Assembly: GCA_028279595.1 (NCBI GenBank)
Contig: JANQNK010000003.1
Coordinates: 176,568-240,567, forward strand
Origin: Thermoplasmatota archaeon
GTDB lineage: Archaea; Thermoplasmatota; JAKEGO01
Direction: 5' to 3'
Length of the DNA: 64,000 bases
Shown: piece by piece, positions 31,073 through 64,000 of the stretch
How the letters are laid out: the number at the start of each line of letters is the position of its first letter
Position numbering within the stretch: the stretch's first letter is position 1
Position numbers and translations under genes: made by a program
Notes under the pieces: generated by a model
Databases searched by the model: none
Told to the model about the DNA's origin: nothing
What the model saw: the letters and a program-made list of their open reading frames with translations, nothing else

Positions 31073-32560
31073 CTAGGGCGGCTGTACGGATCCCCTCGGT
31101 CCAGTCTCGGGCATGTCGGGGACCATCGGCAGGGCGATAGTGACCTTGGTCCCTTCGTCCACGGCGCTCTCTATCGAGAGCCGTCCGTAGTTACGCTCGA
31201 CCATGTCCCTGACCATCGCGAGACCGCTGCTGGTCGGATCCTCCGCGCTGGTGGCATAGGGGTCCAGTGCGCTCCTCAGCTTCTCGCTGGATATCCCGGA
31301 ACCCTCGTCAGAGATCATCACCTTCAGGTAGGAGCCCTCCGGAAGCTCCATCTTGACCCTCTCGATCTCCTCGAGGTCCTTGAGCTGTATGGATATTGAA
31401 CCACCCCCCTCCATCGCCTCGATGGCATTGTCCACCAGGGTTATCAGGGTCGACTGCAGATCGACGGCGCTCGCGTACACCCGGTACTCCCCTGGGTCGG
31501 CCTCGAATGATATCTGCACGTTGTCCGGCAGTCCCATCCTCATCATCTTGACCGTACCCTTCATGAGGATCAGGAGACTGTGCTCCGATGCTGACTCCGA
31601 GGTCATTCCCGTGACGTCGAGGACCTGGTTCACGAGCCTCGAGCATCGCTTGCCTCCGGTGTATATCTCACGTAGCCACTCACGCATCTCCTCGTCCTCG
31701 AGCTTGGTGTAAACGAGCTGTGAGGCGCCGATGATCATGTTGAGGATGTTGTTGACCTCGTGGGCAAGGCCCATTCCCATTGCGGACATCGCGTCGAGCT
31801 TCTGGGCCCTCCGGGCCTCCTTCTCGAGGACCCGGTGTTCGGTGACGTCCTGTGCAAGCCCCATGATCGAAGGCTCGCCGTGGTATGTAACGCCTGTCGT
31901 CGTGATCTTGACCATCCTGTACCCCTCGCGGGTCTTCATGCGGATCTCGGAGTTGGGTGTCTCGCCCTTGACCGCCCGCTCGTACAGGTCCTGCATCTTC
32001 TCCCTGTCGGCCGAGTGGATGGTGTCGGTGAAGTAGAGGCCTTCGAGCTCGGACCTGTCGGTCTCGAGGATCCGTTCCATGCTCTGGTTGGCATAGCGGA
32101 ACTTGCCCTTCTGGAGCATGAAGATGCCGGAGGGATTGTGCTCGGCGAGGGTCCTGTAGACCTCCTCGCTGGCTTTCAGCCTCGCCTCCATCTTGTGCCT
32201 GTAGAGGGCCATCTGTATGGTGGTGTGGAGCTCCCGTCCCTCGAAGGGCTTCAGAAGATATCCGTAGGGGCTGGTCTCCCTCGCCTTCTCGACGGTTGCG
32301 TTGTCGGAATAGGCGGTCAGGTAGACTATCGGGATGTCGACCTTGGAACGTATCTCACCCGCGGTCGCGAACCCGTCCATCTCCCCCTTGAGCTTGATGT
32401 CCATCAGGATGATGTCAGGTCTGTCGGACAACGCGGTGTCGACGGCGAGGGCGCCGCTGGACGATATTCCGGTGACCTCGTAACCCATGTTGATGAGGCT
32501 CCGCTTGATGTCCTCTGCGACGATCCTCTCGTCCTCGACGATCATTACCCTGGTTTCCAT
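31073..32560 (-). CDS. Hybrid sensor: receiver + PAS + HisKA/HATPase histidine kinase
   Basis: REC (MIVEDE...IILMDIKL...KPF), PAS, H-box LAHEVNNILN, ATPase G-boxes (DEGSGI; SSGLAMV). Confidence 0.8.
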   Translation of the reverse strand: METRVMIVEDERIVAEDIKRSLINMGYEVTGISSSGALAVDTALSDRPDIILMDIKLKGEMDGFATAGEIRSKVDIPIVYLTAYSDNATVEKARETSPYGYLLKPFEGRELHTTIQMALYRHKMEARLKASEEVYRTLAEHNPSGIFMLQKGKFRYANQSMERILETDRSELEGLYFTDTIHSADREKMQDLYERAVKGETPNSEIRMKTREGYRMVKITTTGVTYHGEPSIMGLAQDVTEHRVLEKEARRAQKLDAMSAMGMGLAHEVNNILNMIIGASQLVYTKLEDEEMREWLREIYTGGKRCSRLVNQVLDVTGMTSESASEHSLLILMKGTVKMMRMGLPDNVQISFEADPGEYRVYASAVDLQSTLITLVDNAIEAMEGGGSISIQLKDLEEIERVKMELPEGSYLKVMISDEGSGISSEKLRSALDPYATSAEDPTSSGLAMVRDMVERNYGRLSIESAVDEGTKVTIALPMVPDMPETGPRGSVQPP

Positions 32561-32633
32561 CCACTCACCGGTCGATATTCATGGTTAGACCGCGATACTA
32601 TCGATTGCCCCGCATCTGATCTCTGCTGCTTCC

Positions 32634-33326
32634 TCACTTGGCGATCGTGATGCCGCCAGCGCCTATGTCATACGTCATGAGTTCGGTCGGCGTCGGCGTG
32701 TTCCGCATCTTGATGATGTCCATCGCGCGCTCCCTGTTCCCCGTGTACGGATTGTCGCGCTTCTGCAGGCGTATGGCCCCGTGGGCCCAGAAGAGCGCCA
32801 TGTCATTGAACTCCTTGGAGGTCGCGCTGTCGATAATGACGAGGGCTGTAATCCCTTTCCGCTTGAGGCCGTGGATGAGGAGGCCGAACTGGTCCTTGAA
32901 GTCCTGGACCGTGAGGTTCGCCGTGTAGCTGCCGAGGCTGTCAATGACGACCGCCTTCGTTCCCTCCGGGAGGTCCTGGAGGATCCCGACGAAGTTGCCC
33001 TTCCTGGCCTCGTGGGTGATGATCATTGCCATCTCCATCTCGATGTCGTCGAGGGTGGCAAGGTCCATGAAGTTCAATGTGCCGGCGTCCTTCGGGCCCT
33101 TGAGGTCCCACTCGAACGATTCCGCCTGCGCTATGAGGTCGTTCGGGTCCTCCTCGCTGGCCATGTAGACGGTGTTCAGCCCCGCCTTCATGCATGCATT
33201 GACGAATTGGAGGCAGAATATGGTCTTTCCCGCTCCTGCGTTCCCAGTCACCACGATCGTCCTGCCAACCGGAAATCCGCCGAGCGCCTCATCGATGCCC
33301 TCTATCCCCGTCGATATCCTGTCCAT
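32634..33326 (-). CDS. KaiC-like / RecA-superfamily single-domain ATPase
   Basis: GIEGIDEALGGFPVGRTIVVTGNAGAGKTIFCLQF (Walker A) and AVVIDSLGS (Walker B). The ATG at 33326 is preferred (track GTG at 33335). Confidence 0.75.
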   Translation of the reverse strand: MDRISTGIEGIDEALGGFPVGRTIVVTGNAGAGKTIFCLQFVNACMKAGLNTVYMASEEDPNDLIAQAESFEWDLKGPKDAGTLNFMDLATLDDIEMEMAMIITHEARKGNFVGILQDLPEGTKAVVIDSLGSYTANLTVQDFKDQFGLLIHGLKRKGITALVIIDSATSKEFNDMALFWAHGAIRLQKRDNPYTGNRERAMDIIKMRNTPTPTELMTYDIGAGGITIAK

Positions 33327-33363
33327 CTTCCACACACTCCGTCAAACCGTTATCCGTTCCTTC

Positions 33364-34578
33364 CTATTTATCCTTCGTGCTGATGTTGTACTCGAAGCTG
33401 CAGGTGTCCGCTCCGCCGGCGATGGTGGTCTTGTGTGCCACCGACACCTTCTCGTCCGTCCATCCCGCGCTCCTCATGACCATGGTCCGGCACACGAGGC
33501 AGAACACAGGGTTCCCCCGTGCCTCCTCTACCCACGGACATGCCTTGAAATGCAGTTCATCACCGACCATCTCGGTCTCGATGCCGACGTCCTGGAACAG
33601 CGTGGCTATCCATCCCTGAAGGCACTGGAAGTCGGGAAGCTGTTCCGATCCCTCTTCAAGGGAGCAAACCGAATCCTCGAGGAATCGGGGCCTCATCTGG
33701 GCCTCGAAGCGCTCCGCGAAGCTCTTGATGAGCTCGTCCCGGACCTTTGCGGGGACGCTGCCAGCGAATACCGGCAGGGCGCTGATGAGGAATCCATAGA
33801 CCTCTCCCTTGGCCTTCTCGCGCTCTAGCGCTTCCGCCTTCTTCCGTTCCGTGATGTCCCTGAAGAACCCTCTGGTCAGGACGACCTGACCGTCCTTCAC
33901 GAGCGCATTGACGTTCCCCTCGACGGTTATCCGGTCCCCATCCTTGGTCATGAACTCGGTCTCGATACCGGCGAGGGGACTGCCCGACATGACCTCCTTG
34001 AACATCACCATGCATTCCTCGCGATGATCGGGGCAAATGATGTCGAATACGTTCAGACCGGGTAGGTCCTCATCGGCAAATCCCAGGGTCTCCTTCCATG
34101 CCCGGTTCACATGGATGATCTCACCCTGTGGACCGACCTGCTGGATCAGGTCCATCGAATTGTCGAAGAGGTCCCGCAGATGGGCCTCGCTCTCTCGGAG
34201 ATCCGTCTCGAGCTTGTGCTTGTGGAGGGCCATCTCGATGTTCGTGTGGAGTTCCCTCTCCTCGAAGGGTTTGAGTATGTACCCGAACGGATCGGTCAAT
34301 TTTGCCCTTGATAGTGTATCGTCATCCGAGTATGCGGTGAGGTAGACGATCGGTATGTCCATCCTCTCGCGGATACGCTCGGCCGCTTCGACGCCGTCGA
34401 TGTCGCCCTTGAGGACTATGTCCATCAGGACCAGGTCGGGTCCCTTGTCGATGGCCAGGGCGACTGCGTCGTCACCCGTGGCGGCCGCACCCACGATGTC
34501 GTATCCGAGCGCCTCCAGGGTCGACTGGATGTCCATCGAGACTATGCTCTCGTCCTCGACGACCAGGATCCCGGTCAT
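33364..34578 (-). CDS. Response regulator: receiver + PAS + Cys-rich C-terminal output domain (methanogen-output-domain-1-like)
   Basis: REC (ILVVEDE...LVLMDIVL...KPF), a PAS module, then an about 150-aa domain with FKACPWVEEARGNPVFCLVCRTMVMRSAGW...TCSF. Confidence 0.7.
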   Translation of the reverse strand: MTGILVVEDESIVSMDIQSTLEALGYDIVGAAATGDDAVALAIDKGPDLVLMDIVLKGDIDGVEAAERIRERMDIPIVYLTAYSDDDTLSRAKLTDPFGYILKPFEERELHTNIEMALHKHKLETDLRESEAHLRDLFDNSMDLIQQVGPQGEIIHVNRAWKETLGFADEDLPGLNVFDIICPDHREECMVMFKEVMSGSPLAGIETEFMTKDGDRITVEGNVNALVKDGQVVLTRGFFRDITERKKAEALEREKAKGEVYGFLISALPVFAGSVPAKVRDELIKSFAERFEAQMRPRFLEDSVCSLEEGSEQLPDFQCLQGWIATLFQDVGIETEMVGDELHFKACPWVEEARGNPVFCLVCRTMVMRSAGWTDEKVSVAHKTTIAGGADTCSFEYNISTKDK

Positions 34579-35621
34579 TGACCCTCACTCCTCTTCTTCG
34601 ACTTCTGCTCCTGGAACTCAACGGTGAACTTCGTCCCATCTGAGCTGTCGATATCGATGGTCCCGTCGAGCTGGTCCACGAGCGTGTTCACCAGCTGCAT
34701 TCCGAGTGAGTCGGTAGAAGCGAAGTCGAAATCGTCCGGCAGGCCCACGCCGTCGTCCGCCACCCTGAGCATGTATCCGCCGTTGGTGCTGGCCAGGGTG
34801 ATGAAGATCGTCCCCTTACGATCGTCGGGGAACGCGTACTTGAAGGAGTTGGAGGCCATCTCCGTTATCATGAGACCGCAGGGAATGCCCGTCTCCACGT
34901 TCAGGTTGATGTCCTCGATGTTCATCTCGATGGCGACGTTCTTCGACGTTGCCGAGTAGGTCCTGCGGAGCTGGTTGATGAGGGTCCTCGTGTAGTCCGA
35001 GAAATCGATGGACTCGAGGTCGTCGGACCGATAGAGACGCTCATGGACGAGCGCCATGGACTTGACGCGGTTCTGGCTCTCCCTGAAGATGTCGAGGACG
35101 ACCTCGTCCTCGATGAAGCGTGATTGTAACTGTAACAGGCTGGAAACGATCTGGAGGTTGTTCTTGACCCTGTGATGGATCTCCTTGAGGAGCCAGATCT
35201 TCTCCTCCAGGGATCTCTTGATCTGCTCTTCCGCCTTCTGCCGCTCGATGCCGTACCTGATGGCCTTCACCAGCAGGGCCCCGTCGGCCTTCCCCTTGAC
35301 GATGTAATCCTGCGCCCCCTCGCGCATGGCCCTCAAGGCTATCGTCTCGTCGTCGAGTCCGGTCATCACGATGATCGCGGTCGACGGCGCATGCGCATTC
35401 ATGACGAGGAACGTGTCGAAACCGCTCGAATCTGGAAGTGTGAGGTCTAGGAGTATCAGATCGAACTTCTCGTCGTTGATGAGGTCGATGCCCTCCTTCA
35501 GCGTCTCGACCCTCTGGAGGTCGATGCTCGTGGCACCAACCTCGAGTAGCATCTCCTGCATCAGCCGGGCGTCGCCCGGATTGTCCTCGACCAACAGGAC
35601 CTTCGTGGTTAGGTCATCCAT
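34575..35621 (-). CDS. Receiver + HisKA_2 histidine kinase
   Basis: REC ([10 protein letters not shown]...[10 protein letters not shown]), H-box [17 protein letters not shown], HATPase ([11 protein letters not shown]; DDGVGLP; SLGMQLV). The stop overlaps the next ATG (ATGA). Confidence 0.8.
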
Positions 35622-36105
35622 CTCCGTCACCGCGCGGGAGCTTCACCAGCGTGAGCCAGAAGTTCTCGATCGATTTCACGACCTCCATGAACTGTCCGAG
35701 ATCCACCGGCTTCGTGATGTAGCAGTTTGCATGATGATCGTACGTGTTCAGGATGTCCTCCTCCGCCTTCGATGTCGTGAGGATGACCACGGGGATCAGC
35801 TTGAGGTCGTCGTCCGCCTTGACCTCCGCCAGGACCTCCCTGCCGTCCTTCTTCGGAAGGTTCAGGTCGAGAAGGACGATGTCGGGACGGGGCTTCTCTG
35901 CGTACTTCCCCTCCTTCCTGAGGTACTCCATGGCCTTCTGTCCGTCGTCAACGACGTTCAGATTGGTGCGCACCTTCCCATCCTTGAACGCCTCCAAGGT
36001 GAGGCGCGCGTCCCCGGGATTGTCCTCCACAAGCAATATCTCAACGGTCTCTCCCATCTTGTTCACTGCCATCATCTCTCCCTCGAAGCTCTCTCCATCC
36101 ATCAT
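35614..36105 (-). CDS. Stand-alone receiver (Rcp1-like single-domain response regulator)
   Basis: [13 protein letters not shown]...[13 protein letters not shown]...ILTTS...ANCYITKP...ENFWL. Overlaps both neighbouring genes. Confidence 0.8.
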
Positions 36106-39100
36106 GGCGTCTCACTCCTGTTAATCGGGAAGGTGAAATTAAAGGTTGCGCCCTCGCCGGGCTCGGACTCGACCCAGATCTCCCCACCGTGTCTTTCCAC
36201 TATCCGCTTGCACACCGCCAGACCGATCCCGGTGCCCTCGTACTCCTCCCGGCCATGAAGCCTCTGGAAGATGACGAATATGCGCTCCTTGTACTCCGGA
36301 TCGATGCCTATGCCGTTGTCCTTGACGGATATCTTCCACATCCTCTCTTCCTGCTCCACTCCCACGTGTATCTTCGGCGAAGAGTCGCCGCGGAACTTGA
36401 TCGCGTTGGCCATCAGGTTCTGCATGAGCTGCGCGAGCTGCGACGGGTCTCCCGAGATGGGAGGGAGGTCATCGTGGGTGATCTCGGCACCGCTCTCCTC
36501 TATAGCTATCTTGAGGTTCGCGGTGGCGATGTCGAATATCTTCTGGAGTTCGAGGGGTTCGAACGGCTTTCCCCTCGTATTGACGCGTGAGTATTGAAGC
36601 AGGTCGTTGATGAGCGTCTGCATCCGCTTCGCTCCGTCCACGGCGTACTCGATGAACTCGTCGGCGTCGTCGTCAAGCTTGCCCTTGTACCGGCGTTCGA
36701 GGAGCTGGACATAGCTGGCGACCATCCTCAATGGTTCCTGCAGGTCGTGGGAGGCCACGTAGGCGAACTGCTCCAGTTCCTTGTTGCTTCGCTCCAGCGC
36801 CTTCGCGTAGTCCTGGACGTCATGCTCCACCTGACGCCTGAGCGTGATGTCCCTGACGGCTCCGAGCTCGGCGTAGTCGCCGTCGAACATGATGTTGGAT
36901 ACCGAGAACTCGCAGTACCTAACGTTCTTTCGACGTGTCATGATGCGCGCCTCGTAGGTGTGGGGGGCGCCCTTCCCCTCACGCCGCGCCTTGGTGACCT
37001 CCTCAATGACCTCGCGGTCCTCGGGGTGTATGAGATCGAGCATGCTCATCTCCATGAGCTCCTTGGTGTTGTACTCGGTGATGTCGCAGACCCTCTCGTT
37101 GATGAAGACCAGTCCGCCGATGGCCTCGATGTAGACCCCGTCGTGGCTCCTCTCGACGAGGGTCCTGTACTTCTCCTCGCTCTCCCGGATGGCCTCCTCG
37201 ACCTTCCGTCTCGCGCTTATGTCCCTTGCGATACCCTGGATCGCTACCGGGACCCCTCCCTTCAGGACGAGCGATGACATGACCTCGACCCAGACACGGC
37301 TGCCGTCCTTGCGCTTGAGCCTGAACTCCACAGGGTCCCGCTGATAACCGACCTTCATCAGCTCCTCCACGGTCCCGAACGCCTTCTCGAGGTCCTCCTC
37401 CTCGAGCAGGGTAGCAAAGTTCACTCCGCCGATCTCCTCCTTCCTGTATCCTGTAAGGTCCTGGGCCGCCTGGTTGGCGTCTATGAAGTGACCCTCGAAA
37501 TCGCTAGTGTAAACGGCGTCCATCGAGCCGTCGAAGAGGGACCTGTACCTGTCCTCCATGTCCTTGATCGCGATCTGTGCCTGCCTTCTCTGAATTGCGA
37601 CCGAGGCCTGGTTGATCAATGCCTCGATGAGCTCCAGGTCCTCGAGCTCGTTCTTCCTCTTCGGTATGATAATAACTGAACCGAACTGCTTTCCCTCGTT
37701 GATTATCCCCATCTCGTAGATGCTCCTGATCCCCATCATCCTGCCGCCGGTATTGATCACGGATGCAGGCAGGACACCGCTCGTCAATGCGGCGAGGTCC
37801 CCCTCCAGTTTCTTCAGATGGGGTCTGTCACCCTTGAACCTGGCTTCATCGGTCAACGGGAACTCCATCCCGACGATGTCCTTCCCGATGAGCTTCAACG
37901 CCTTACGCGCCTTATCATCGATCCCGTGGACGGACCTTATGACCATGGCGTCCTTCCTATCATCATAGAAGAGCATGAAGATGTATCCCTTGCCGATCTG
38001 TTCGAGGACCTTGTCCCCGATGAACTCGAAGATGTCGTACTCCATGGGAAGGTCGGCGTACTCGACGGTCATCTGCGAAAGCAGTGCCATATCGTGGAAG
38101 TACTTCCTCTCCTTCTCCTGGGTCTTTCGCCTCTCCGTGACGTCCCGCCCCAGCATGACCAGGCCCTGGACGTTCCCGGACGCGTCCCTGATCACCGAGG
38201 TCGTGAAGGAGACGGGTATCGATCTACCGCCAGGTCGCATGATGCTGGCATCGAGGTACTTCTTCGCGTCCTTTCCGACGACCTGCTTGTACCATCTCTC
38301 GCCAAGGGCCTTCCCGTCGCTGCCGGTGAATATCTTGGTCATCGGCATCCCGATGAGGTACCGCTCGGTCATCCCGGTGAGCCTGCTAGCGGCCTTGTTG
38401 ACCTTGACGATCGTCCCTGTGCTGTCGACGAGGAAGAGCGAATCCGACATGTTCCTTGTGATGTTCCCGGCGGCTGTCGCGGGATTGATGTTGAAGAGGC
38501 CGTACTTCGATATCCCGTATGCGATGAAGAAGTTACCGAAGGTGAACGACGTTATCTGCATCTCCGGATAACGGCTTCCCGCCAGCATCTGGCCGATGGA
38601 TGAGAAGCTTCCGAAGAGGATCGGGACCACGAGGCCCACGGTCACGAACTTCGCCTGCCCTTTCTTTTCCGCATCCTCCTGCTTCAGGTAATAACTGAGG
38701 CAGAGGTAGAGTGCGAGGAAGCTCATGAGGACGGCCCAAATGGGAATGACCGCTCCGATGATCGGGTCCCCCATGCTCTCGTAGGTCCATCCCCAGTAAT
38801 ACTTATCGGGGCGTCCCATGAACTCATCCATGAACAGGCCGAACGACGACAGGATGAAGGCGGGACCGTAGATCAGGACGTATGAGAGCCTGCTTTTGAG
38901 GAATTCGGTCGATTCCGTGTAGACCAGTGCGAAATTCAGGAGGAGCGCGACGGCGAAGGGCCACAGTGTATAGGCCTTCAACCAGAATTCCGCCATCTCG
39001 TAATCCCCGGCTATCCTGAGCTGGAACTCGATGAATGCGAAGGCGGCGATCGTCAATGAGAGGATCGCGAACATCCGGCTCTTCTGATCGCTCGAATTCC

Positions 39101-39185
39101 TCAGTACGATATGGGCGACGAACGCCGAGACGACGAACGCGTTGAACGAGAGGTATGCATAGATGTTCAGTTGCGCCCCCTCCAT
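36102..39185 (-). CDS. Membrane sensor kinase: 7TM N-terminal domain + PAS + GAF + 2x PAS + HisKA + HATPase
   Basis: About 230-aa polytopic N-terminus, H-box [14 protein letters not shown], ATPase motifs (NLMANAIKF; DNGIGI; GTGIGLAV). Confidence 0.8.
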
Positions 39186-43388: not shown

Positions 43389-43839
43389 CCGCAACACCAA
43401 GACTCTCGTTCAGTATGAGCCAGTAGAGATTGAGCGCCCGAACCATCTCGAGCAGTGAATCGAAATTGACGGGCTTGACGAGATACGAGTTGGCGCCGAG
43501 GTCGTAGGCCCTCTTGATGTCCGAGATCTCCTTTGAGGAGGTCAGCACGACCACCGGCAACCTGCTCAGGCCCGGATGCTTGCGGAGCCAAGCGAGCACG
43601 TCGAACCCGGAGCTCCGGGGGAGCTTTAGGTCCAGGAGGAGCAGGACCGGATGGGGATACGCTTCCCTGTCAGCGTACTGGCCGTTCCCGGCCAGGTAGT
43701 CCAGCGCCTGGTCTCCGTCCTCTACGACTTGGATCGGGTTCCCGATCTCGGCCTTCTTGAATGCCCTCTTCACGAGCAGTACGTCGTTCGGGTCGTCCTC
43801 GACGAGCAGGATCGTGTAGTTCTCGACGTTCATCTTCAT
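43375..43839 (-). CDS. Stand-alone receiver (Rcp1-like)
   Basis: ILLVEDDPNDVLL...LLLLDLKLPRSSG...VLTSS...ANSYLVKP...LYWL. ATGA overlap with the upstream kinase. Confidence 0.8.
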   Translation of the reverse strand: MKMNVENYTILLVEDDPNDVLLVKRAFKKAEIGNPIQVVEDGDQALDYLAGNGQYADREAYPHPVLLLLDLKLPRSSGFDVLAWLRKHPGLSRLPVVVLTSSKEISDIKRAYDLGANSYLVKPVNFDSLLEMVRALNLYWLILNESLGVADEKT

Positions 43840-55044: not shown

Positions 55045-58000
55045 CGCCCGTCTCCTCTTCTATCTTGAATACGATGTTGAACGACGTTCCCTTCTTCCTG
55101 TCGAGGTCGATCTCACCCTCGAGCTGGGACACGAGGGTGGTTACCAGTTCCAGTCCGAGGGTCTCGGTGTTACGGAAATCGATCTCTTCCGGGATCCCGG
55201 ACCCGTTGTCCTTGATCCTGAGGGCCATCATCCCCCCGTCATCGGCCAGTGTCACCTCTATGCGCCCCTTCTGGCCCTCGGGGAACGCGTGCTTGAGGCT
55301 GTTGGAGATCAGTTCGTTGACTATGAGGCCGGCTGGAACACCCCGGTCGATGCCGATGAAGATCGGTTCTCCGTGGACGTCGAACCTGATCTTGTTCGGG
55401 TCGACCCCGTAGGATTGCATCAGATGGGTTCCAAGGCTCTCAATGTATTCGTAGAAATTGATCCTGGACAGGTCCTTTGATTGGTAGAGCTTGTCGTGGA
55501 TGAGTGCCATTGACCTAACACGGTTCTGGCTCTCGTTGAAGACGGACCGCATGGCATCCTCGTCGATGTATCCCGCCTGGAGGTTGATCATTGACGAGAT
55601 CACCTGCATGTTGTTCTTTACACGGTGGTGGATCTCCTTCAGCATCACCTCCTTCTCGGCGAGGGAGTCACGGATCACCTTCTCGGCCCTCTTCCTCAGA
55701 GTGATGTCCCTGCAGATGAGCTCAAGCCCGGATACCTGCCCTCCTTTCGTGATCAATCCGGGGAATATCTCGAGCCAGGTGCGGCCCTCTCCAGTATCGA
55801 TCTTCACCTCGATCGGACCTATGTCCTCCCCTTCAAGGAGTTGGAGGAACATCTCGAAATAATCGTCTATCCTGTCCTCCTCCACGAAGTCGAGGTCTGC
55901 GAACGAGCGCCCCCGAATGTCCTCCTTCGGGAATATGGCGATGCTCGATGTCGCAGCGTTGTAATCCATGATCTTCCCTTCGGAATCGATGATCACGATG
56001 GCCTCCGGAGATGCGTCGAAGAGGTTGCGATACCTTTCCTCACTCTCCATCAGGTCGATCTCCGACCTCTTTCTCTCGGTTACGTCGTGAAGTACCGTGA
56101 TCACCCTTGTGACCTCGCCACCTTCGACCACCGGGATCTTCGAGGTCTCAGTGATGATCCTCCTCCCATCGATAACATTGTCTTCATTCGTTCCTAATGG
56201 TTCCCGGCCATCTATGACCTGATTGTACTCTTCCCACACGGTCGGGGGAAGGAAGGGAAAGATATCCGGGAGCTTCCTATCCATGAATGGCCCCTCGATA
56301 CCCAACCCCGACGTCCACTCTGTGAACCTGTCGTTGTGGAGTACTATCCTCAGGTCTGTGTCGACCACATGGAGCGGGTCGATCATGGAATCGATCGTCG
56401 TCCTGTAGAACCTCTCGGACCGTCGGAGGGTCTGATCGGCCTTCATCCGTTCCGTGATGTCCCGGGTCATGCTCTGCATGTACTCCTTGCCGCCGAAGGA
56501 GACCTTGGTACTCTCGAACTCGATCGGGACGAGGGCGCCGCCCGGTTGCAGGAAGTCGAGCTCTGCGGAACCACCCTGCCCCTCCTTGGCGATCCTGAAG
56601 AAGGTCTTCCTTGCGGCATCGACCTTGTCCTCAGGTCTCAGTTCCCATATCCTCATACCACATAGGGAATCGTAATCCCTTCCCGTCTGCCTCTCGAACT
56701 CGGAGTTGCAATCGACGATCACTCCGGTCTCGACGTCGATCAGGACTATCCCGTCCTTAGCCTCCTCGAACAACGATCTGTACTTCTCCTCGCTCTCCAT
56801 GATAGCGACATTTACCCTCTTCCTCTCGGTGATGTCCTTCGAAACTACACAGAGGGCATCCTGGCCGCCCACAGGGATGACCACACCGCTGACCTCGACG
56901 TCGATCTTCGTGCCGTCCTTCCGGATGTAGCTCCTCTCGCCGATGAACTTGCTCCTCTCGGCGAGCAGGTCCTCGATCTTGGAATCGATATCGTCCTTGG
57001 GGTGATCTATGAACGAATAGATCATGAGGTCGTCCATCTCGTTATCGTCATAGCCGATGAATCCCTGGAATGCAGCGTTCCATTCAGTGACCTTTCGGGT
57101 TTCAGGGTTCATGATGAATATTCCGTTGGGGCTCTGTTCTATAGCAGCCCGGTACTTGGCCTCGCTCTCCCTCAATGCCTCTTCCGCCTGCTTCCTCTCG
57201 GTGATGTCTGTGAAGGCTGCTACCATTACCCCTGGGGATGTCTGGAAGGCGTGTACCTCGAACGCGCCGGCGATCCTGTCGTCCTGATACTCGACATGCT
57301 CCGTCCTCCACGGTATACCGTTTCCAGCGGCCCGGCGGTACATGTCCGGTATCTCAGTCCCATCCAGCGGCGGGAACGCCTCCTCGATGGTCTTTCCGAT
57401 GAACTGCTGGTTGTCAACACCTAGTATATCGTCGGCCGTACGGTTCGCACCGACGAAGACAAGGCGTCCGTCGTCGGAGAGAGCGTAGATGTGCATGCCG
57501 ATGGGCGTCGAGTTGACTATGTTCCTGAACCCCTCCTCGCTCTCCCTGAGCGCCTTCTCGGCCGCCTTGCTCTCCGTGACGTCGCGGATGACCCCCTGGT
57601 ACCATGTGCTCTCCCCATCGTCGCCCGTACGCAGCGTCGCTGTAAGCAGACAGTCCACGACCGCACCCTTCTTGTGATCAAGCTGGATCTCGAAGTCCCT
57701 GACGAACCCGCGGGATTCGATCTCGGAGATGAACCGCGCCCTGTCCTTCGGGTCCCTGTAAAGCTCTGCGACGTTCATCTCCCGTAGTTCGGACATGGGA
57801 TAGCCGAGGAGGTCGATACCTGCCTGGTTGAGCTCCACGAAGTTCCCGTCCCTCGTCGTGATGAAGACCGGGTCCCTGGAGCTCTCGAAAAGTGTCCTGA
57901 ACTTCTCCTCCGAGACCTTCAGGGCATCGAGGATCAATGCCTGTTCCGAAATGTCGGTGACGATGCCGAGGATCGCCCTGCCACCCTCGTAATCGATCAG

Positions 58001-59251
58001 TTTGGAGGTCACAATCGCCCGGATCTCGTCTCCACGTTTCGTCAAGAGGGAGTACTCGTATGGATCGACATCCTTCCCCGCAGCGTGCTTGGCGAAGCTG
58101 TCCTTTACCGTGTCCAGTGAGGATGGTGCGATCAGCGACAGGAAATTGAAATCGGGTGAATAGAGCTCTTCACGCTTGTAGCCCATGACCTCCTCCGACT
58201 TCTGGTTCGCATATACGATCCTGCCCATGTGGTTGATGAATATCATGTTGGGTGACTGCTCGGCGAGGGTCCTGAACTTCTCCTCGTTCTCGCGGAGGAC
58301 CACCTCGAAGGTCTTCCTTTCGAGGGCATTTCCGATGGTCTCACCCGTAAGACGCATGAGCCCGATGATGTCGTCCGCCCAGCCCTTCTCCATCTTCACG
58401 GAGTCGAAGCCGATGAACCCGATGATGGTATCGGAATAGACCATTGGAACGATGATCATCGACTTGATGCCCTCGCGCTCGAACTCCTCCTTCTCGGCCT
58501 GGGCCTCCGGTCCGAGGTCGGCGACCCTGGGGACGTGGACGACCTCGTTCTTCTCGATCATCTTCAGCGACCACTCGAAGGCCTGCCTGGGAACATCCTT
58601 GAGATGCTCGATCATCGGTTGGATGTCCTCGGCACACCACTCGTGGGTGTTGCTCATGGTATCGCCGTCGGACGAGAACTGGAATATGTAGCACCTGTCC
58701 ACACCGGCGAACTCGCCCAGGAGCTGGAGGACGTGTCCGATCTCGTTGTCCACCTCGTCTGCAGGGACGTTGATGAAATCGGATGAGATGGTGGCGATCA
58801 AACGCTCGAACTCCATCCTGTATTCGATAGCTTCCTCCGCTCTCCTCTTCTCGGAGATGTCGCGGACGAACGCCCACATGCTCTCCGGCATTCCCTTCTC
58901 GTCACTGGTAAGATAAGTGACTATCTCGATGGGAAAGACGCTCTTGTCCTTCCGTATGTACTCCTTCTCGTAGATATCTGAGAAACCGCGTTTGAGGACC
59001 TGTTCTTGAATGACCTTCGCTTCCTCCTCGTGCCATCTCTCCGGCGTGATGTCCTCGTACGAAAGTTTGGCGAGCTCCTTATCCGAGTAGCCAAGCATGT
59101 CCCGAAATGCCGGGTTCGATTCGATGATCGTGCCTTCCATGTCGACCCTGGCGTAGCCGTCCCTGATGCGGTTGAACAGTTCCTGATATCCGTTCGGGGT
59201 CTTCTCGACCGCCTTCCTACCCGAACCTGATACCTTCTTCTTATCCGCCAT
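55034..59251 (-). CDS. Multi-PAS/GAF + HisKA_2 histidine kinase (about 1405 aa)
   Basis: About 9 PAS modules and one GAF-like module, [17 protein letters not shown], HATPase. The ATG at 59251 (MADKKK) is preferred over the track start at 59353, which overlaps the upstream gene. Confidence 0.75.
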   Translation of the reverse strand: MADKKKVSGSGRKAVEKTPNGYQELFNRIRDGYARVDMEGTIIESNPAFRDMLGYSDKELAKLSYEDITPERWHEEEAKVIQEQVLKRGFSDIYEKEYIRKDKSVFPIEIVTYLTSDEKGMPESMWAFVRDISEKRRAEEAIEYRMEFERLIATISSDFINVPADEVDNEIGHVLQLLGEFAGVDRCYIFQFSSDGDTMSNTHEWCAEDIQPMIEHLKDVPRQAFEWSLKMIEKNEVVHVPRVADLGPEAQAEKEEFEREGIKSMIIVPMVYSDTIIGFIGFDSVKMEKGWADDIIGLMRLTGETIGNALERKTFEVVLRENEEKFRTLAEQSPNMIFINHMGRIVYANQKSEEVMGYKREELYSPDFNFLSLIAPSSLDTVKDSFAKHAAGKDVDPYEYSLLTKRGDEIRAIVTSKLIDYEGGRAILGIVTDISEQALILDALKVSEEKFRTLFESSRDPVFITTRDGNFVELNQAGIDLLGYPMSELREMNVAELYRDPKDRARFISEIESRGFVRDFEIQLDHKKGAVVDCLLTATLRTGDDGESTWYQGVIRDVTESKAAEKALRESEEGFRNIVNSTPIGMHIYALSDDGRLVFVGANRTADDILGVDNQQFIGKTIEEAFPPLDGTEIPDMYRRAAGNGIPWRTEHVEYQDDRIAGAFEVHAFQTSPGVMVAAFTDITERKQAEEALRESEAKYRAAIEQSPNGIFIMNPETRKVTEWNAAFQGFIGYDDNEMDDLMIYSFIDHPKDDIDSKIEDLLAERSKFIGERSYIRKDGTKIDVEVSGVVIPVGGQDALCVVSKDITERKRVNVAIMESEEKYRSLFEEAKDGIVLIDVETGVIVDCNSEFERQTGRDYDSLCGMRIWELRPEDKVDAARKTFFRIAKEGQGGSAELDFLQPGGALVPIEFESTKVSFGGKEYMQSMTRDITERMKADQTLRRSERFYRTTIDSMIDPLHVVDTDLRIVLHNDRFTEWTSGLGIEGPFMDRKLPDIFPFLPPTVWEEYNQVIDGREPLGTNEDNVIDGRRIITETSKIPVVEGGEVTRVITVLHDVTERKRSEIDLMESEERYRNLFDASPEAIVIIDSEGKIMDYNAATSSIAIFPKEDIRGRSFADLDFVEEDRIDDYFEMFLQLLEGEDIGPIEVKIDTGEGRTWLEIFPGLITKGGQVSGLELICRDITLRKRAEKVIRDSLAEKEVMLKEIHHRVKNNMQVISSMINLQAGYIDEDAMRSVFNESQNRVRSMALIHDKLYQSKDLSRINFYEYIESLGTHLMQSYGVDPNKIRFDVHGEPIFIGIDRGVPAGLIVNELISNSLKHAFPEGQKGRIEVTLADDGGMMALRIKDNGSGIPEEIDFRNTETLGLELVTTLVSQLEGEIDLDRKKGTSFNIVFKIEEETGDES

Positions 59252-59318: not shown

Positions 59319-62057
59319 TCACTCCGTGAACCCGATGACGAACCGGGTCCCATCGTCCCGGGAGAGCTCTATGGACCCCTCGATCTGCTCCACCAGCGTG
59401 GTCACGAGCTCCATCCCCAGTGACTTCGTGTCCCTGAAGTCGATGTCCTGGGGGATGCCTATCCCGTCGTCGCTGTAATCGATCGTTATCCTCCCGCCGG
59501 ATTCCCCCTCGAAATTGACGAGGATCCTACCTCCCCGTCCATCGGGGAATGCATGCTTCAGGGAGTTCGAGATGAGTTCGTTGAGGATCAGTCCGACGGG
59601 CACCGCTCTGTCGATCCCAAGCTTGATGTCCGAACCGTCGACCCGGATCGTGATACCGGATGCGTCCGCACCGTACGAATGGATCAGCTGACCCCCGAGT
59701 GTCTGGGTGTACTCCATCAGGTCCACGCCGGAGAGGTCCGCCGACTGGTAGAGCTTGTTGTGGATCAATCCCATCGATTTCACGCGGTTCTGGCTCTCGT
59801 CGAAGATCTTGAGCATGTCCTCATCCTCTATGTACGTGGCCTGGAGGCTCAGCATGCTCGAGATCACCTGCATGTTGTTCTTGACCCTGTGGTGGATCTC
59901 CTTCAGTAGCACTTCCTTCTCCTTCAACGAGTCCTCGATCAGGGCCGCCGCCCTCTTCCTCTGGGTGATGTCGTGGATAATACCCTGATACCCGATGGCG
60001 AGGCCCTTCTCGTCCTTGCGGACGGACGAGGTTATGATGCAATCGATGACGCTCCCGTCCTTCCTCCGGAACTGCGTCTCGAAGTCCTTCACGTAGCCCT
60101 TCTGCTCGATCTCCTTCTGAAAGACGAACCTTTCCTCGGGGTTTACATATATCTGGTCAGCAGGCAGGTCCTCGATGTCCTGCGGCGAATAGCCAAGCAG
60201 GGCGTAGGCCGCTGGATTGAGGTCGACGATCGTCCCGTCGCGTCGAGTGATATAGACCGCGTCCATCGACTGCTCGAAGAGGGACTTGTACCTCTGTTCG
60301 CTCTCCAGATGCTTCATCTCACCGAGCTTGCGTGCAGTGATGTTCTCCATTTCGCCGATGATGTACATGGGATCCCCCTCGGAATCCCTGGCGAGCACGA
60401 CAGTGAGATTCACCCAGATGATGTTCCCATCCTTGCGGACGGCTCTCTGTTCGATGGTGAAGGCTGGGATCCGTCCCTGCATCAGCTTCGACATCAGATC
60501 GAAGCTCTCCTGCATGTGGTCCGCATGGGTGATGTCCATCCAGGTCATCTTGAGGATCTCATCCTGCGTGTATCCGACCATATCGCAAGCGACCTGGTTG
60601 AACTTCACGAACTTGCCCTCCGGAGTGGCCAAGGCCCTTCCGATGGTGGCATGGTCGAACGCCAGCCGAAACATCTCCTCGCTCTCTTCGAGGACCCTCG
60701 CGGACCTTGCCCTCTCGCTGATGTCTCGGACGAACACGAGAGTTGCCGGGCTTCCTTGATAATCGATGATATTAGCGTTTATCTCCACAGGGACACTTCC
60801 TCCGCTGCCCTTGACCGTGATCTCGTAGACACTCTCGACAGCCTCACCTCTCTTTCGGCGCTCATAACGCTCCATGGTCGCCTTCCGGTCCTCGGGCGAG
60901 ATCAAGGATGAGAAGTCCGTCGTCGAGATATCCTCCTCGGTCAGTCCTGTGATTTCCAGGACCCTGTCGTTCCAGAAGACAACCCTGTCGTTCTGGAGTA
61001 CGGCGATCCCGTCATTCCCCTTCTCGAAGATGGAGGAGTACTGCACCTCCAGCTCCCGCCTGGCGTGCTCGGCCCGGTTCCTTTCGGTCACATCCTTCGT
61101 GATGACCTGGATCGCCACGATCTCCCCGCCCTTGCGGACCAATCCGGGTAGGATCTCCAGGTCCAGTCGGACGTCCCCCTCCTCGATGACGACCTCGAAC
61201 GGCTCGACCTCCTCGCCCGCGATGATCCTTTCGAAGATCCCCATTAGTCGCTCCAATTCGTCCTCGGGGACCAGGCCAAGCTCGAAGAACGTCTTTCCAA
61301 TCACATTCTCACGCGGTAGGCCCAATATGTGTGACTGGACGCCGTTGTAGTCTATGATCACTCCGTCGGTATCCATGATGGCTATACCTTCAGGAGAGGA
61401 CTCGAAGAGGTTCCGGTAGCGCCACTCGCTGTCCACCATGGCCTCGACAGCCAAGCGCTTCTGTAGAAGGACAGATGCTACCCTGACGAATGTCTCGATG
61501 GTCGTCTTCTCCTTGAGTCCCGGACTGCGGAGGATGAGGGAGATGTTGCCGAAGATCTGTCCCTCCCAGGAGAGGTCTATGGAGTGGATCTCCTTAATAC
61601 CCAATATCTTCTCGACGGTCCTCGAGACCCCCTTCGACAATTTTCCCGAGGTCAGCGTGTGGAGATTGTCGGGGAGTCTAACGATCTCCCCCCGATCGAG
61701 GTCGAATCCCTCCCTCTCGAAGATCGGGAACTCCATTCCCACGGGATCCCGTTTCAAGGTGTCCATGAGGAGCTTCGAACCCTTTCCCAGGCCCACCAGT
61801 GACCGTATGGTGGATATCTCCTTCTGCTCGTCGATCTCGCTGATGACGACGATCCCGTCACCGATCAATTCCTGGACCTTCTCGGCTACGAAAAGATATG
61901 CGTCATCGTCCGCCGACAGTTCCACCATGGCGGTCGATGTCTCGGCAAGCCAATCCAGTCCGTGGGTCCTTGACTGCGGGCCAGTCGCGGAGGACCTCCT
62001 CATCCTTCGTCCTTTCTCCGATGCCCGTCCAACCCTGCCTTTTCCTTCGGCCGTCAT
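59319..62057 (-). CDS. GAF-like + multi-PAS + HisKA_2 histidine kinase
   Basis: N-terminal about 200 aa is GAF-like, then 5 PAS modules, [17 protein letters not shown] and HATPase. The ATG at 62057 is preferred over the TTG at 62063. Confidence 0.75.
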   Translation of the reverse strand: MTAEGKGRVGRASEKGRRMRRSSATGPQSRTHGLDWLAETSTAMVELSADDDAYLFVAEKVQELIGDGIVVISEIDEQKEISTIRSLVGLGKGSKLLMDTLKRDPVGMEFPIFEREGFDLDRGEIVRLPDNLHTLTSGKLSKGVSRTVEKILGIKEIHSIDLSWEGQIFGNISLILRSPGLKEKTTIETFVRVASVLLQKRLAVEAMVDSEWRYRNLFESSPEGIAIMDTDGVIIDYNGVQSHILGLPRENVIGKTFFELGLVPEDELERLMGIFERIIAGEEVEPFEVVIEEGDVRLDLEILPGLVRKGGEIVAIQVITKDVTERNRAEHARRELEVQYSSIFEKGNDGIAVLQNDRVVFWNDRVLEITGLTEEDISTTDFSSLISPEDRKATMERYERRKRGEAVESVYEITVKGSGGSVPVEINANIIDYQGSPATLVFVRDISERARSARVLEESEEMFRLAFDHATIGRALATPEGKFVKFNQVACDMVGYTQDEILKMTWMDITHADHMQESFDLMSKLMQGRIPAFTIEQRAVRKDGNIIWVNLTVVLARDSEGDPMYIIGEMENITARKLGEMKHLESEQRYKSLFEQSMDAVYITRRDGTIVDLNPAAYALLGYSPQDIEDLPADQIYVNPEERFVFQKEIEQKGYVKDFETQFRRKDGSVIDCIITSSVRKDEKGLAIGYQGIIHDITQRKRAAALIEDSLKEKEVLLKEIHHRVKNNMQVISSMLSLQATYIEDEDMLKIFDESQNRVKSMGLIHNKLYQSADLSGVDLMEYTQTLGGQLIHSYGADASGITIRVDGSDIKLGIDRAVPVGLILNELISNSLKHAFPDGRGGRILVNFEGESGGRITIDYSDDGIGIPQDIDFRDTKSLGMELVTTLVEQIEGSIELSRDDGTRFVIGFTE

Positions 62058-62152
62058 ATCCAACCACCCTCACCTAGACCATAGGTCCCGGTTCCGCCGA
62101 CCAGCCTTTGGCTCTATGTATAACATCGTTCACGATAATGAACCTTCGCACT

Positions 62153-62596
62153 CTAATCTTCAGGCTTCGCCAGCTGCACCGAGCAGTAGAGGTTGACCGC
62201 CTTGGCGAGCTCGAGGTACTCCTCGAACTTGACGGGTTTGACGAGATAGAAGTTGGCTCCAAGCTCGTCAGCCTTGTCGACGTCGGCACCGGACTTTGAG
62301 GATGTCAGCATCACGACCGGCAGCTCCTTCAGGTCCTTGTGTCCCCGTATCCACTTGAGCAGTTCGTGACCGGAGATACGCGGCATGTTGACATCCAGCA
62401 GTACCATCGACGGGAACGGGTGCTTCTTCCTGTCACTGTATGGCTTCTTACCCTCGAGATATGCCTTGGCGCTCTCTCCGTCCTCGACAGCTTCCACGGG
62501 ATAGGGCATCTCCGTCTTCTTGAACGCCCTCTTTATCAGAAGTATATCGTTGGGATCGTCGTCGACGAGGAGTATCGTGTTCTTCGAGGCCGTCAT
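62153..62596 (-). CDS. Stand-alone receiver (Rcp1-like)
   Basis: ILLVDDDPNDILL...MVLLDVNMPRISG...MLTSS...ANFYLVKP...LYC. The minus-strand TATA-like CTATATATCC lies about 25 nt upstream. Confidence 0.8.
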   Translation of the reverse strand: MTASKNTILLVDDDPNDILLIKRAFKKTEMPYPVEAVEDGESAKAYLEGKKPYSDRKKHPFPSMVLLDVNMPRISGHELLKWIRGHKDLKELPVVMLTSSKSGADVDKADELGANFYLVKPVKFEEYLELAKAVNLYCSVQLAKPED

Positions 62597-62741
62597 ATCG
62601 GGGTGAATATGTCAGGAGCGGATATATAGATTGTCATACATCGAACGGCGCTGGGTTCGCCCCGCCACCGTCCATTCCGGTGGTTCCCACCCACTCAAGG
62701 CCAAGAATGCTGGAGCGGGACCAGTTGAGCAGGGTCAGGGC

Positions 62742-64000
62742 CTACACCATCGGGCTCACTGTCAGGATGTAACCCTTGATCTCGTTCCCGACCCGGCGGG
62801 GGCAGACGTTCGCGTGGAACCTCTTCCTTCCCTCGGTCATCGCGGCGGTGATCTTGGTAGCGGCCCGCCCCTCCCTGAGGGCGTCCTTCATGGTCTCGAT
62901 AAACTCGCGCCTCTCCGTGACGAGTCGTTCGACCGGGCTCCCGACGATCGCCTCCTCCGGTGCTCCAAGCATCGTCGAGGCCCTCGCGCTCATGTGGAGC
63001 ACGGTCCTGTCCACGTCGATCACAACGACGCCCATCCCGGGCAGTGAATCTATTACGCTCTTGAGGAAGTTGATCCGTCCGGAGAGGTTGTCGCGCTCGG
63101 CCCTGTCGCCCGTGGCGTCCGAAAGGTCCCCGTGCACGCCGATGAGCTTGCCTGACCCGTCGTAGATGGCCTCCAGGTGCTCCGACACGTAGACGGTCCT
63201 ACCGTCCTTCCGGAGGACCCTGTATTCGTCGTTGGGCTCGAACTCCTTGAACTTGATCAATTTCAATAGCTTCTTCTTCAGATGATCGGCGTCCTCCGGG
63301 TGCACGATCTTCGTAAGGAAGTAGGGTATCCCCATCGCCTCGTCGGACTCATATCCGAGGAGCCGTTCAGTATCACCGGTGACCTCCTCCAGCTCCCCGC
63401 CCGTGCTCATCCTGAAATGGACGGTCCCCGGCTCCGCCGCGGCCGCGATCCTCTCCTTGATCGGAGAACCTATGAGGTGCATCGCCTCCGGTCCCCGGAC
63501 CACGCGCCACTCGACCTGGAGATCGCCGCCCGTTTTCATGAGTATCGGGAACTCGAACGTGTCGGACGACCCGAGGGCAGTGTCCGCCTCGCCCTTCTTG
63601 ACCACCGGCACAATGTCGTGCCACATCGTCCCCTCGATGTCCGACGCTGTGAACCCCGTCGTCTCGAGGAACGCTCCGTTGGCGTGGACTATTCGCCTCT
63701 CCTTGGAGACCCGCAGGTAGAGTTCGCTGAGGGATTCCATGATCTCGCCGTTCATGGCGATCTCACGCTCCCTGTCCTCCACGGTCGTGTGCATCTCGCC
63801 GATCTTCCCCTTGAGTGTCTCTATCTCGGACCGAAGGTCGTCGCCCTTTCCTGTCGAGTCCGTGACGTCCCTCATGAACCCGAGGATCTGGTCGGAGTCC
63901 GGTCCTGCAGGCGTCAATTTCGTCCAGGTGTGGCCTGGTCCGCCCGCGGGCCGCTCGATACGGAGCGGCAGTTCCCGCGACTCGCCCTTGGCCGCCCTGC
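62742..64000 (-). CDS. Multi-PAS sensor protein without a kinase core; 5' end beyond the window
   Basis: The reading frame stays open upstream of the track TTG start (63917) to the window edge (...RAAKGESRELPLRIERPAGGPGHTWTKLTPAG...). There are 3 PAS-like modules, no H-box and no HATPase. Confidence 0.6.
   Translation of the reverse strand, partial: RAAKGESRELPLRIERPAGGPGHTWTKLTPAGPDSDQILGFMRDVTDSTGKGDDLRSEIETLKGKIGEMHTTVEDREREIAMNGEIMESLSELYLRVSKERRIVHANGAFLETTGFTASDIEGTMWHDIVPVVKKGEADTALGSSDTFEFPILMKTGGDLQVEWRVVRGPEAMHLIGSPIKERIAAAAEPGTVHFRMSTGGELEEVTGDTERLLGYESDEAMGIPYFLTKIVHPEDADHLKKKLLKLIKFKEFEPNDEYRVLRKDGRTVYVSEHLEAIYDGSGKLIGVHGDLSDATGDRAERDNLSGRINFLKSVIDSLPGMGVVVIDVDRTVLHMSARASTMLGAPEEAIVGSPVERLVTERREFIETMKDALREGRAATKITAAMTEGRKRFHANVCPRRVGNEIKGYILTVSPMV

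Follow-up and report, generated by a model that had tools for sequence, protein, structure and literature searches.

Catalogues of archaeal two-component signalling exist, but experimental tests are very few. According to the 2018 census (Galperin, Makarova, Wolf and Koonin; PMC5847659), archaeal regulators mostly lack DNA-binding domains, HTH-fused ones being nearly absent, and about 40% consist of the receiver domain (REC) only. Archaeal kinases are mostly cytoplasmic and carry many PAS and GAF modules; REC-(PAS)n-HisKA-HATPase, REC-PAS-MetOD1 and DUF835 proteins are among the architectures listed. MetOD1 is a V4R/HNOB-like Cys-rich domain, listed for Methanobacteria and Methanomicrobia only, DUF835 is regarded as an inactivated KaiC, and proteins of the KaiC family have been proposed as signalling hubs. 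Three kinases and four regulators were counted in 11 Thermoplasmata genomes (PMC5847659). Since most of these kinases are orphans, gene order offers no clue to their partners. The locus described here, found in a 64,000-nucleotide (nt) stretch of a Thermoplasmatota archaeon (the window; contig JANQNK010000003.1 of assembly GCA_028279595.1, forward-strand positions 176,568 to 240,567), is unusual because nine histidine kinases and ten receivers lie together, in an order suggesting who talks to whom.

Related logic has been described in a few systems. The Lhf system of Rhodopseudomonas palustris is made up of BphP2/BphP3, the lone receiver LhfD (Rpa3017), the REC-kinase LhfE (Rpa3018) and the LhfA regulator (PMC6879726). 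In the stress relay of alphaproteobacteria, sensor kinases act on MrrA/SdrG, these on PhyK/PhyT/LovK, and the latter on PhyR (PMC5964349, PMC5898713); HisKA_2 proteins work there as phosphotransferases downstream of a lone receiver, and the phosphodonor of PhyR is of the HisKA_2 family (PMC5964349). In Methanosarcina acetivorans, the kinase MA4377 relays phosphate to a REC-only protein encoded downstream and to further receivers, including a MetOD1 regulator, and REC-only proteins have been proposed as hubs (bioRxiv 10.1101/2024.10.04.616672).

The array spans from position 31073 of the window to the equivalent coordinate ~68351 (~37.3 kb, ~20 genes, all on the minus strand). Transcription proceeds from high to low coordinates, and genes are numbered from g1 (31073) to g18, at the right edge of the window (Table 1). 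g18 is cut by the edge, and was completed from an identical Logan contig (L001) which runs past it; since the complete gene encodes a 1869-residue protein starting there, the array ends ~4.35 kb outside the window. Coordinates of open reading frames (ORFs) and Pfam matches agree with the original prediction in the count of nine kinases (351–1841 residues), four of them hybrid REC-kinases, and ten receivers. Four receivers are fused to kinases at the N-terminus, five are lone, and one belongs to a REC-PAS-MetOD1 protein. The other members are a one-domain KaiC ATPase, an RHH protein, a PAS-DUF835 protein with a winged helix-turn-helix (wHTH), and the PAS/GAF-only g18. Nine kinases in 19 consecutive genes have a binomial probability of ~1e-13, calculated with the background rate (998 in 108,246 proteins) of the archaeal class in which the 2018 census counted the highest share of kinases (PMC5847659); the clustering of kinases and receivers is far beyond chance. 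At least 41 PAS and at least 4 GAF modules, taking the largest count of matched stretches per protein, were found in the array. Not every kinase is PAS/GAF-rich, contrary to the original prediction: g4 features neither module, g1 and g14 one PAS each. g6 is the sole membrane-bound sensor, and almost all of the sensor modules are cytoplasmic.

All nine kinases have a HisKA or HisKA_2 domain plus HATPase_c (Pfam), and the H-box His and the N, G1 and G2 boxes are present in all according to the alignment, in which some of the H-boxes read SHDLxxPL. The most divergent core is that of g1, which retains the H-box His but has a partly degenerate G2 box; g16 has a full set of intact boxes, H (EIHHRVKNN), N, G1 and G2. 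HisKA kinases are g1, g6, g10 and g14; HisKA_2 kinases are g4, g7, g8, g15 and g16. When aligned with E. coli CheY, the ten receivers retain D/E12, D13, D57, T87 and K109, and have been sorted into two classes. Class A includes g1, g3, g7 and g14, which are 52–62% identical, and a sister pair, g11 and g12, denoted A'. In g12 the phospho-acceptor residues are present, V replaces Y106, and the start is uncertain, the longest ORF reaching 50464. Class B includes g5, g9 and g17, and the more distant g4 (B'); members feature a LLVEDNPxD start and the insertion typical of phytochrome response regulators. PDB matches of g9 are 5ic5, 5brj, 4zyl, 1k66, 1k68 and 1i3c (Rcp1, RcpA, RcpB and other phytochrome regulators; E 4e-33 to 8e-25). 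For class A the top PDB match is 3cg0 (E 3e-31), a receiver taken from a REC-PAS-GGDEF protein; among the matches of lower rank are 1s8n, deposited as putative antiterminator (E 9e-21), and PhyR receivers (E 7e-17 to 1e-15). g4 and g5 have an identical 12-residue beta1-alpha1 stretch, which fits a single kinase, g6, serving both. Paralogy within the array is marked: identity is 60% between the kinase cores of g15 and g16, 59% for g10/g14, 62% for g3/g7, and 53% for g9/g17.

In Pfam searches with a cut-off of E<=0.01, no REC-containing protein of the array matched a helix-turn-helix (HTH) or Hpt (PF01627) domain, and Hpt was found in no array protein at all. No kinase has a C-terminal receiver, the four kinase-linked receivers being all N-terminal. 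Since both Hpt and C-terminal receivers are absent, the array is not a classical multistep phosphorelay. The network of relays originally proposed in place of independent pairs holds up in part: multi-step cascades are plausible, given four kinases with N-terminal REC and alternating classes, and the classical form is not. It was also correct that no receiver is fused to an HTH domain. The absence of a classical DNA-binding regulator (OmpR, NarL, NtrC or LytR type), presented as a peculiarity of the locus, is instead the documented rule for archaeal two-component systems, and was to be expected here (PMC5847659).

Junctions between kinase and receiver genes follow one rule. In all five junctions where a kinase gene overlaps the following receiver gene, HisKA is followed by class B (g10>g9, g6>g5) and HisKA_2 by class A (g15>g14, g8>g7, g4>g3). 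Pairing of the Rcp1 type is found twice: the start of g9, and likewise that of g5, overlaps the stop codon of the HisKA kinase gene before it. The same partition was observed outside the array in 80 loci of other species, drawn from species-representative genomes with g3 as query, a junction being defined as a receiver lying at most 250 nt after a kinase core: 26 junctions were HisKA>B, 28 were HisKA_2>A, and none was cross-class (54/54). In 25 of these loci the class-A anchor is immediately preceded by a kinase core, which is of the HisKA_2 type in 25/25. The rule gives a small, concrete set of phosphotransfer predictions.

Junctions are in turn part of a larger repeated unit. The paralogous operons g10-g9-g8-g7 and g6-g5-g4-g3 both have the order HisKA kinase, class-B lone receiver, HisKA_2 kinase, class-A-REC-PAS-output; g18-g17-g16/g15-g14 is a third, altered copy of this cassette. 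The cassette is also found in relatives at 76–81% nt identity and in the metagenome-assembled genome (MAG) of a Thermoplasmata archaeon (L021). A planctomycete, a Gemmataceae bacterium (L033), has the same order: a PAS-GAF-HisKA kinase, a 153-residue REC overlapping it by 4 nt, a REC-HisKA_2 protein, and a REC-PAS-kinase-REC protein. The REC-HisKA_2 protein has the architecture of g4, and is found at the position of g4.

On these grounds the array may be described as a lineage-specific expansion of archaeal two-component genes in an uncultured host, probably of the class Thermoplasmata, arranged as a cassette-based cascade network in about six units rather than in one operon, an interpretation which we hold with slightly more than even confidence. 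A PAS-rich HisKA kinase would phosphorylate the class-B lone receiver, similar to phytochrome regulators. This receiver would control the HisKA_2 kinase in one of three ways: fused to it as input domain (g4), paired with it as a protein of its own (g9 with g8; g17 with g16), or through phosphoryl back-transfer to the HisKA_2 histidine. The HisKA_2 kinase would then phosphorylate the class-A receiver fused to PAS and output, the output being a further kinase (g7, g14, g1) or the Cys-rich MetOD1 domain (g3). As class-A receivers would gate further kinases, the cassettes can be linked in a single branched network that receives its input from >40 PAS/GAF sensor modules. Outputs would act through protein-protein contacts rather than through receiver-HTH fusions, MetOD1 with the adjacent KaiC-like g2, predicted to be active; the likely DNA-binding end is g13, a PAS-iKaiC(DUF835)-wHTH protein, with its small RHH partner. 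Domain content, intact catalytic residues, the two receiver classes, the junction rule, cassette paralogy and conservation can be read from the sequences themselves; we infer each phosphotransfer step, the roles of the lone receivers, and any link to g13/RHH or to target genes.

The role assigned to lone receivers can be read differently. They could be phosphate sinks or phosphatase partners which damp kinases, each cassette being made by two separate systems, a HisKA kinase with its sink, and a HisKA_2 kinase with its REC-PAS-output protein. Precedents are LhfD, described in R. palustris as a sink for BphP2/3 dispensable for the response (PMC6879726), and LovR, which acts as a sink in Caulobacter; moreover, g8 and g16 have PAS inputs of their own and intact ATP-binding boxes, and need no upstream kinase. 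Sinks seem nonetheless improbable, because in g4 a class-B-like receiver, with an alpha1 matching that of g5, is fused to a HisKA_2 core lacking any other sensor, a fusion-type argument for class-B control of HisKA_2, and because a lone REC comes before a HisKA_2 kinase at three places in the array, and again in L033 and L021.

A broader possibility is that a portable four-gene cassette is common to bacteria and archaea. It would be a Hpt-less His-Asp-His-Asp relay running through two mutually insulated kinase/receiver families, here iterated three times, chained by receiver-gated kinases and ending on the MetOD1 plus KaiC effector pair; its order may be HisKA sensor kinase, Rcp1-like lone receiver, HisKA_2 kinase/phosphotransferase, PdtaR/PhyR-like receiver-PAS-output. 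If true, phosphorelays of the bacterial type would here be physically tied to the KaiC hub that has been proposed for archaeal signalling. The idea is tentative, and less probable than a lineage-specific cascade network.

Conservation of the array was assessed at increasing distances. In JGI metagenome contigs of relatives (76–81% nt identity) the locus is present and has the same neighbors on either side. From g10 to g1 gene order is identical in close relatives, and proteins are 72–95% identical. In the upstream half g16 and g15 are missing, and g14 lies directly after g17; this half contains PAS-DUF835-wHTH and RHH genes in two pairs, one more HisKA_2 kinase, a receiver that is degenerate, and a gene resembling g11 in truncated form. 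The truncated g11 copy measures 98 residues. In L087/L088 (e.g. L088 18287-18739) a class-B-like receiver overlapping the stop codon of a HisKA_2 kinase carries D57S and T87A changes, and is a pseudo-receiver, since the phospho-acceptor Asp is changed to Ser and Thr87 to Ala. Orthologs of g14 in relatives are 81% identical, and g1 is kept in L083 and L021. The Thermoplasmata MAG L021, the only match at the DNA level among species representatives, keeps g6 to g1 at ~70% identity. In ~19 Methanobacteriaceae species only the pair formed by the MetOD1 regulator (37–41% identity) and KaiC (50–55%) remains; in Methanobacterium ERen5 the pair adjoins uvrB/uvrC, and no kinase is found nearby. Conservation is thus that of a locus at short range, of one operon at medium range, and of one gene pair at long range. 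Maintenance of the array as a unit, which the original prediction had put forward as a check, is borne out by close relatives as far as the locus and its flanks are concerned; it does not extend to the reshuffled upstream half, nor to distant archaea, which keep only g6–g1 or only g3–g2.

Such a pattern could also be expected if the locus were a nursery of paralogs, in which independent two-component modules have been clustered by local duplication and recombination, each kinase working with its own neighbor, with no integration across modules. Kinase cores and receivers of the array are each other's paralogs (g15/g16, g3/g7), PAS segments are common to g6 and g10, the upstream half gains and loses genes among relatives at ~78% nt identity, several separate promoter-like boxes are present, and distant archaea retain g3-g2 only. 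Independent modules are hard to reconcile with nine kinases facing six non-kinase receiver proteins, only one of which has a recognisable output domain. Four kinases must act below another kinase, because a receiver is their main N-terminal input, or their sole one in g4; and preservation of the four-gene order in a bacterium as well as in relatives implies that selection acts beyond pairs. A nursery without integration is unlikely on this evidence, though it deserves weight.

The original prediction had taken the 33 kb as one translationally coupled unit with fixed stoichiometry. An operon of this size, encoding a signalling complex of fixed composition, would suit a region lying on one strand and ~96% coding (in 31073–64000 gaps total 1205 nt in 32,928 nt), in which seven junctions overlap by 1–14 nt; the overlaps originally quoted are all present when ATG starts are used. 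There are also eleven gaps of 9–214 nt, and tight overlaps are limited to three groups, g15-g14, g10-g9-g8-g7 and g6-g5-g4-g3. AT-only heptamers, counted because a scan with a strict TATA pattern gave no match, are 70-fold denser in gaps than in coding sequence. Six of the eleven gaps hold AT-rich TATA-like boxes; boxes lie upstream of g17, g15, g13, g10 and g6, and also of the peptidase gene flanking the array. As expected for archaeal promoters, boxes lie 24–66 nt before the starts of g17 (32 nt), g15 (45 nt), g13 and g10 (51 nt, box TTTTATAA); g6 is preceded by a 214-nt gap with two ATATATA boxes, at -123 and -178. By their composition, the boxes suggest about six transcription units: g18; g17-g16; g15-g14; g13 through g11; g10-g7; g6-g1. 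All genes from 31073 onward are on the minus strand, as had been stated, but the run enters unrelated genes on both sides, and strand uniformity therefore characterises a ~49-kb region and is not specific to the array. Deletion of g15-g16 and insertion of other genes in relatives have left the rest undisturbed. As for stoichiometry, overlapping codons alone do not imply a fixed ratio. A single operon is, on the whole, very improbable.

Several points weigh against the cascade network favored here. The wiring is deduced from adjacency and family membership, and the putative promoters were called from AT-richness alone. The 54 junctions take in receivers fused at the C-terminus of hybrid kinases, some were assigned to a class at only 27–32% identity, and the loci, having been picked via class-A homology, form a sample biased toward class A. 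One HisKA_2 kinase of the relatives precedes a class-B-like receiver, albeit a degenerate one (D57S, T87A). g18 fills the slot of the first kinase in the third cassette, yet has no kinase domain. The reshuffling of the upstream half in close relatives argues against a tightly co-adapted whole. Finally, g11, g12, g13 and the RHH protein are tied to kinases by position alone, and the nearest homologs of g11 lack DUF835 fusions.

The candidate outputs listed in the original prediction (a Cys-rich domain, a KaiC-like ATPase, an RHH protein and a PAS-DUF835-wHTH protein) correspond to MetOD1, KaiC, RHH_3 and DUF835 matches, plus a wHTH. The MetOD1 domain of g3 has four Cys residues, invariant across nine homologs, in the motifs C-PW, FCLxCR and CxF; a single-sequence structure model reached a predicted local distance difference test (pLDDT) score of 55, and a word-indexed protein search with the domain gave no matches. 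g2 features a Walker A (GNAGAGKT), a catalytic EE pair (SEED) and a Walker B (VVIDS), all kept in four homologs, and is therefore predicted to be an active one-domain ATPase; PDB matches are KaiC (1e-25), PH0186, PH0284 and SSO2452. No KaiB or KaiA family match was found in the locus and g2 is single-domain, which sets it apart from the cyanobacterial KaiABC clock. A g3-type MetOD1 regulator is followed within 30–90 nt by a one-domain KaiC-like ATPase in ~20 loci (L003-L021, L047), from ~19 Methanobacteriaceae species and the Thermoplasmata MAG L021; in L037 MetOD1 has no adjoining KaiC gene. As judged from these sequences, the MetOD1 regulator and KaiC are the only pair conserved across archaeal classes, and provide a testable entry point to the output of archaeal receivers devoid of DNA-binding domains.

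g13 is a sensor-regulator requiring no phosphorylation. Residues 655–790 contain no GxxGxGKT Walker A. The C-terminal 235 residues were modelled with a pLDDT of 86, and the best fold match is FlaH (4yds, E 1.3e-5), KaiC and RecA being also matched, which fits with DUF835 being an inactivated KaiC-like domain, in agreement with the published view (PMC5847659). The wHTH was called from weak TubR/TFE sequence matches and from the helix-helix-helix-hairpin end of the same model. PAS-DUF835-wHTH and RHH genes, in this order, form a recurring unit, with a single copy in the window (50503–53367) and two in relatives (L085 1-3825; L088 12179-15426), where sensor parts have diverged (44–67% identity). 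Two metagenome scans with the DUF835-wHTH region gave no matches, and a word-indexed protein search with the same region gave two only. A link of g11/g12 to DUF835 through gene fusions was considered and is unsupported: the nearest database relatives of g11 are at most 50% identical, and mostly plain REC-only proteins.

Table 1. Genes of the array, listed in the direction of transcription (coordinates refer to the window; E values are from Pfam)
Gene	Coordinates	Strand	Features
g18	62742..64000 (window part)	-	C-terminal part of a 1869-residue PAS/GAF-only protein (L001 4246-9855); at least 6 PAS, 2 GAF
g17	62153..62596	-	Lone receiver, class B; Response_reg 6.8e-21; D12, D13, D57, T87, K109 present
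g16	59319..62003	-	4 PAS, HisKA_2, HATPase (Pfam); 894-residue start according to the L001 gene call
g15	55034..59251	-	PAS, GAF, ~7 PAS, HisKA_2, HATPase (Pfam)
g14	53506..55044	-	REC (class A)-PAS-HisKA-HATPase (Pfam); 11-nt overlap with g15
g13	50782..53367	-	5 PAS, DUF835 (2.4e-18), C-terminal wHTH
RHH protein	50503..50688	-	61 residues; RHH_3 7.3e-5, within the cut-off; paired with g13
g12	49889..50341	-	Lone receiver, class A'; Response_reg 1.3e-17
g11	49484..49879	-	Lone receiver, class A'; 9.4e-19
g10	43836..49361	-	1841-residue kinase; ~7 PAS, GAF, HisKA, HATPase; opens operon g10-g9-g8-g7
g9	43375..43839	-	Lone receiver, class B; 3e-20; ATGA overlap with g10
g8	41583..43388	-	3 PAS, HisKA_2, HATPase (Pfam); 14-nt overlap with g9
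g7	39400..41583	-	REC (class A), 3 PAS, HisKA_2, HATPase (Pfam); 1-nt overlap with g8
g6	36102..39185	-	Seven-transmembrane region (HisKA_7TM 6.3e-15), 3 PAS, HisKA, HATPase; opens operon g6-g5-g4-g3(-g2-g1)
g5	35614..36105	-	Lone receiver, class B; 2.4e-18; 4-nt overlap with g6
g4	34575..35621	-	REC (class B')-HisKA_2-HATPase; no sensor domain besides the receiver (Pfam)
g3	33364..34578	-	REC (class A)-PAS-MetOD1 response regulator; MetOD1 PF18546 4.3e-34; ATGA overlap with g4
g2	32634..33326	-	One-domain KaiC-like ATPase, 230 residues; KaiC PF06745 1.1e-48
g1	31073..32560	-	REC (class A)-PAS-divergent HisKA-HATPase; final gene of the array

In the full-length g18 protein no HisKA, HATPase or output domain was detected by Pfam, and the only PAS_2 match, a weak one (E 1e-3 to 3e-4), falls in this protein. 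The gene is not a recent pseudogene, because a relative keeps an ortholog of the same length, 76% identical; g18 could serve neighboring kinases as a sensor partner. Long near-identical stretches, for example one beginning with CEFSVS, are common to a PAS module of g6 and to two neighboring ones of g10, and the g10 gene of a relative carries a 336-nt insertion at this point, which suggests exchange or duplication of PAS modules between and within array genes.

The array is flanked at the left, on the same strand, by genes (22746-30989) encoding an S8 peptidase of the subtilase type with a signal-peptide-like start, two beta-helix (NosD-like) proteins and an MscS-type channel. Their order is kept in relatives, and they are possible targets of the array, linked to it by position alone. 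At the right, beyond g18, three unrelated genes on the same strand are followed by a divergent giant gene. Pfam detected no CheA, CheW, MCP or CheB/CheR anywhere in the array or flanks, and no Rfam families, tandem DNA repeats or tRNA genes were found in the window. The hypothesis that the array is a mobile island was ruled out, as its GC content equals that of the surroundings and flanks are kept in relatives. A separate low-GC island (12000-21700; 33–47% GC versus ~58% around), 10 kb away from the array, has genes for a tyrosine integrase (18988-19971) and for a protein with a HEPN domain (17981-18622), besides several ORFs unmatched in Pfam, and is probably an integrated element unrelated to the array. 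At 635-7318 genes are found for an acyl-CoA dehydrogenase, electron-transfer flavoprotein subunits, an arsenite methyltransferase and a TauE-type exporter, which point to a heterotrophic rather than a classical methanogenic host, in spite of the 'methanogen output domain'.

Compared with the census (PMC5847659), the array contains known protein types, as PAS/GAF-rich kinases, REC-only regulators, REC-PAS-HisKA, REC-PAS-MetOD1 and DUF835 proteins. Proteins were treated singly in the census, and a 37-kb array, a repeated four-gene order and a MetOD1 regulator-KaiC gene pair are not described there. MetOD1 is not listed for Thermoplasmata, yet the nearest DNA-level relative of the locus is a Thermoplasmata MAG.

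Likeness to the Lhf system of R. palustris is found at the level of gene logic, in sensor HisKA kinases, a small lone receiver of the phytochrome type, a short REC-kinase and a receiver-output protein. In contrast to Lhf, the array lacks a phytochrome photosensory module (the PAS_2-GAF-PHY core was not found in g6 or g10, neither of which matched PHY in Pfam), the final regulator is a REC-PAS-MetOD1 protein or a kinase rather than a transcription factor, and the cassette occurs in an archaeon and in repeated form. With the alphaproteobacterial stress relay the array has in common many PAS/GAF kinases, which here would converge on a lone receiver, and this would feed HisKA_2 proteins and then a second receiver; in both, Hpt is missing, its role being taken in the relay, and perhaps here, by a HisKA_2 DHp, and PDB matches of class A include the PhyR receiver. 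Unlike their counterparts in the relay, the HisKA_2 proteins of the array may be true kinases, since all ATP-binding boxes are kept. Further differences concern the FATGUY motif (PFxFATGGY), absent from g5, g9 and g17, in which beta4-alpha4 reads LTTSK or LTSSK, the PhyR-type sigma-like domain, found by Pfam in no array protein, and the lack of NepR and EcfG. MA4377 is similarly an archaeal kinase serving a REC-only protein and several receivers, including a MetOD1 regulator; it differs as a classical hybrid kinase with C-terminal receivers, those of the array being N-terminal, and the kinase genes of M. acetivorans are for the most part dispersed orphans, in contrast to the nine contiguous ones here. 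The array is a member of neither the Lhf nor the stress-relay systems. What the array adds, by inference, is a junction rule, a cassette in iterated form and a conserved pair of MetOD1 and KaiC genes; it is otherwise a large representative of a type of signalling system already known, and overturns nothing.

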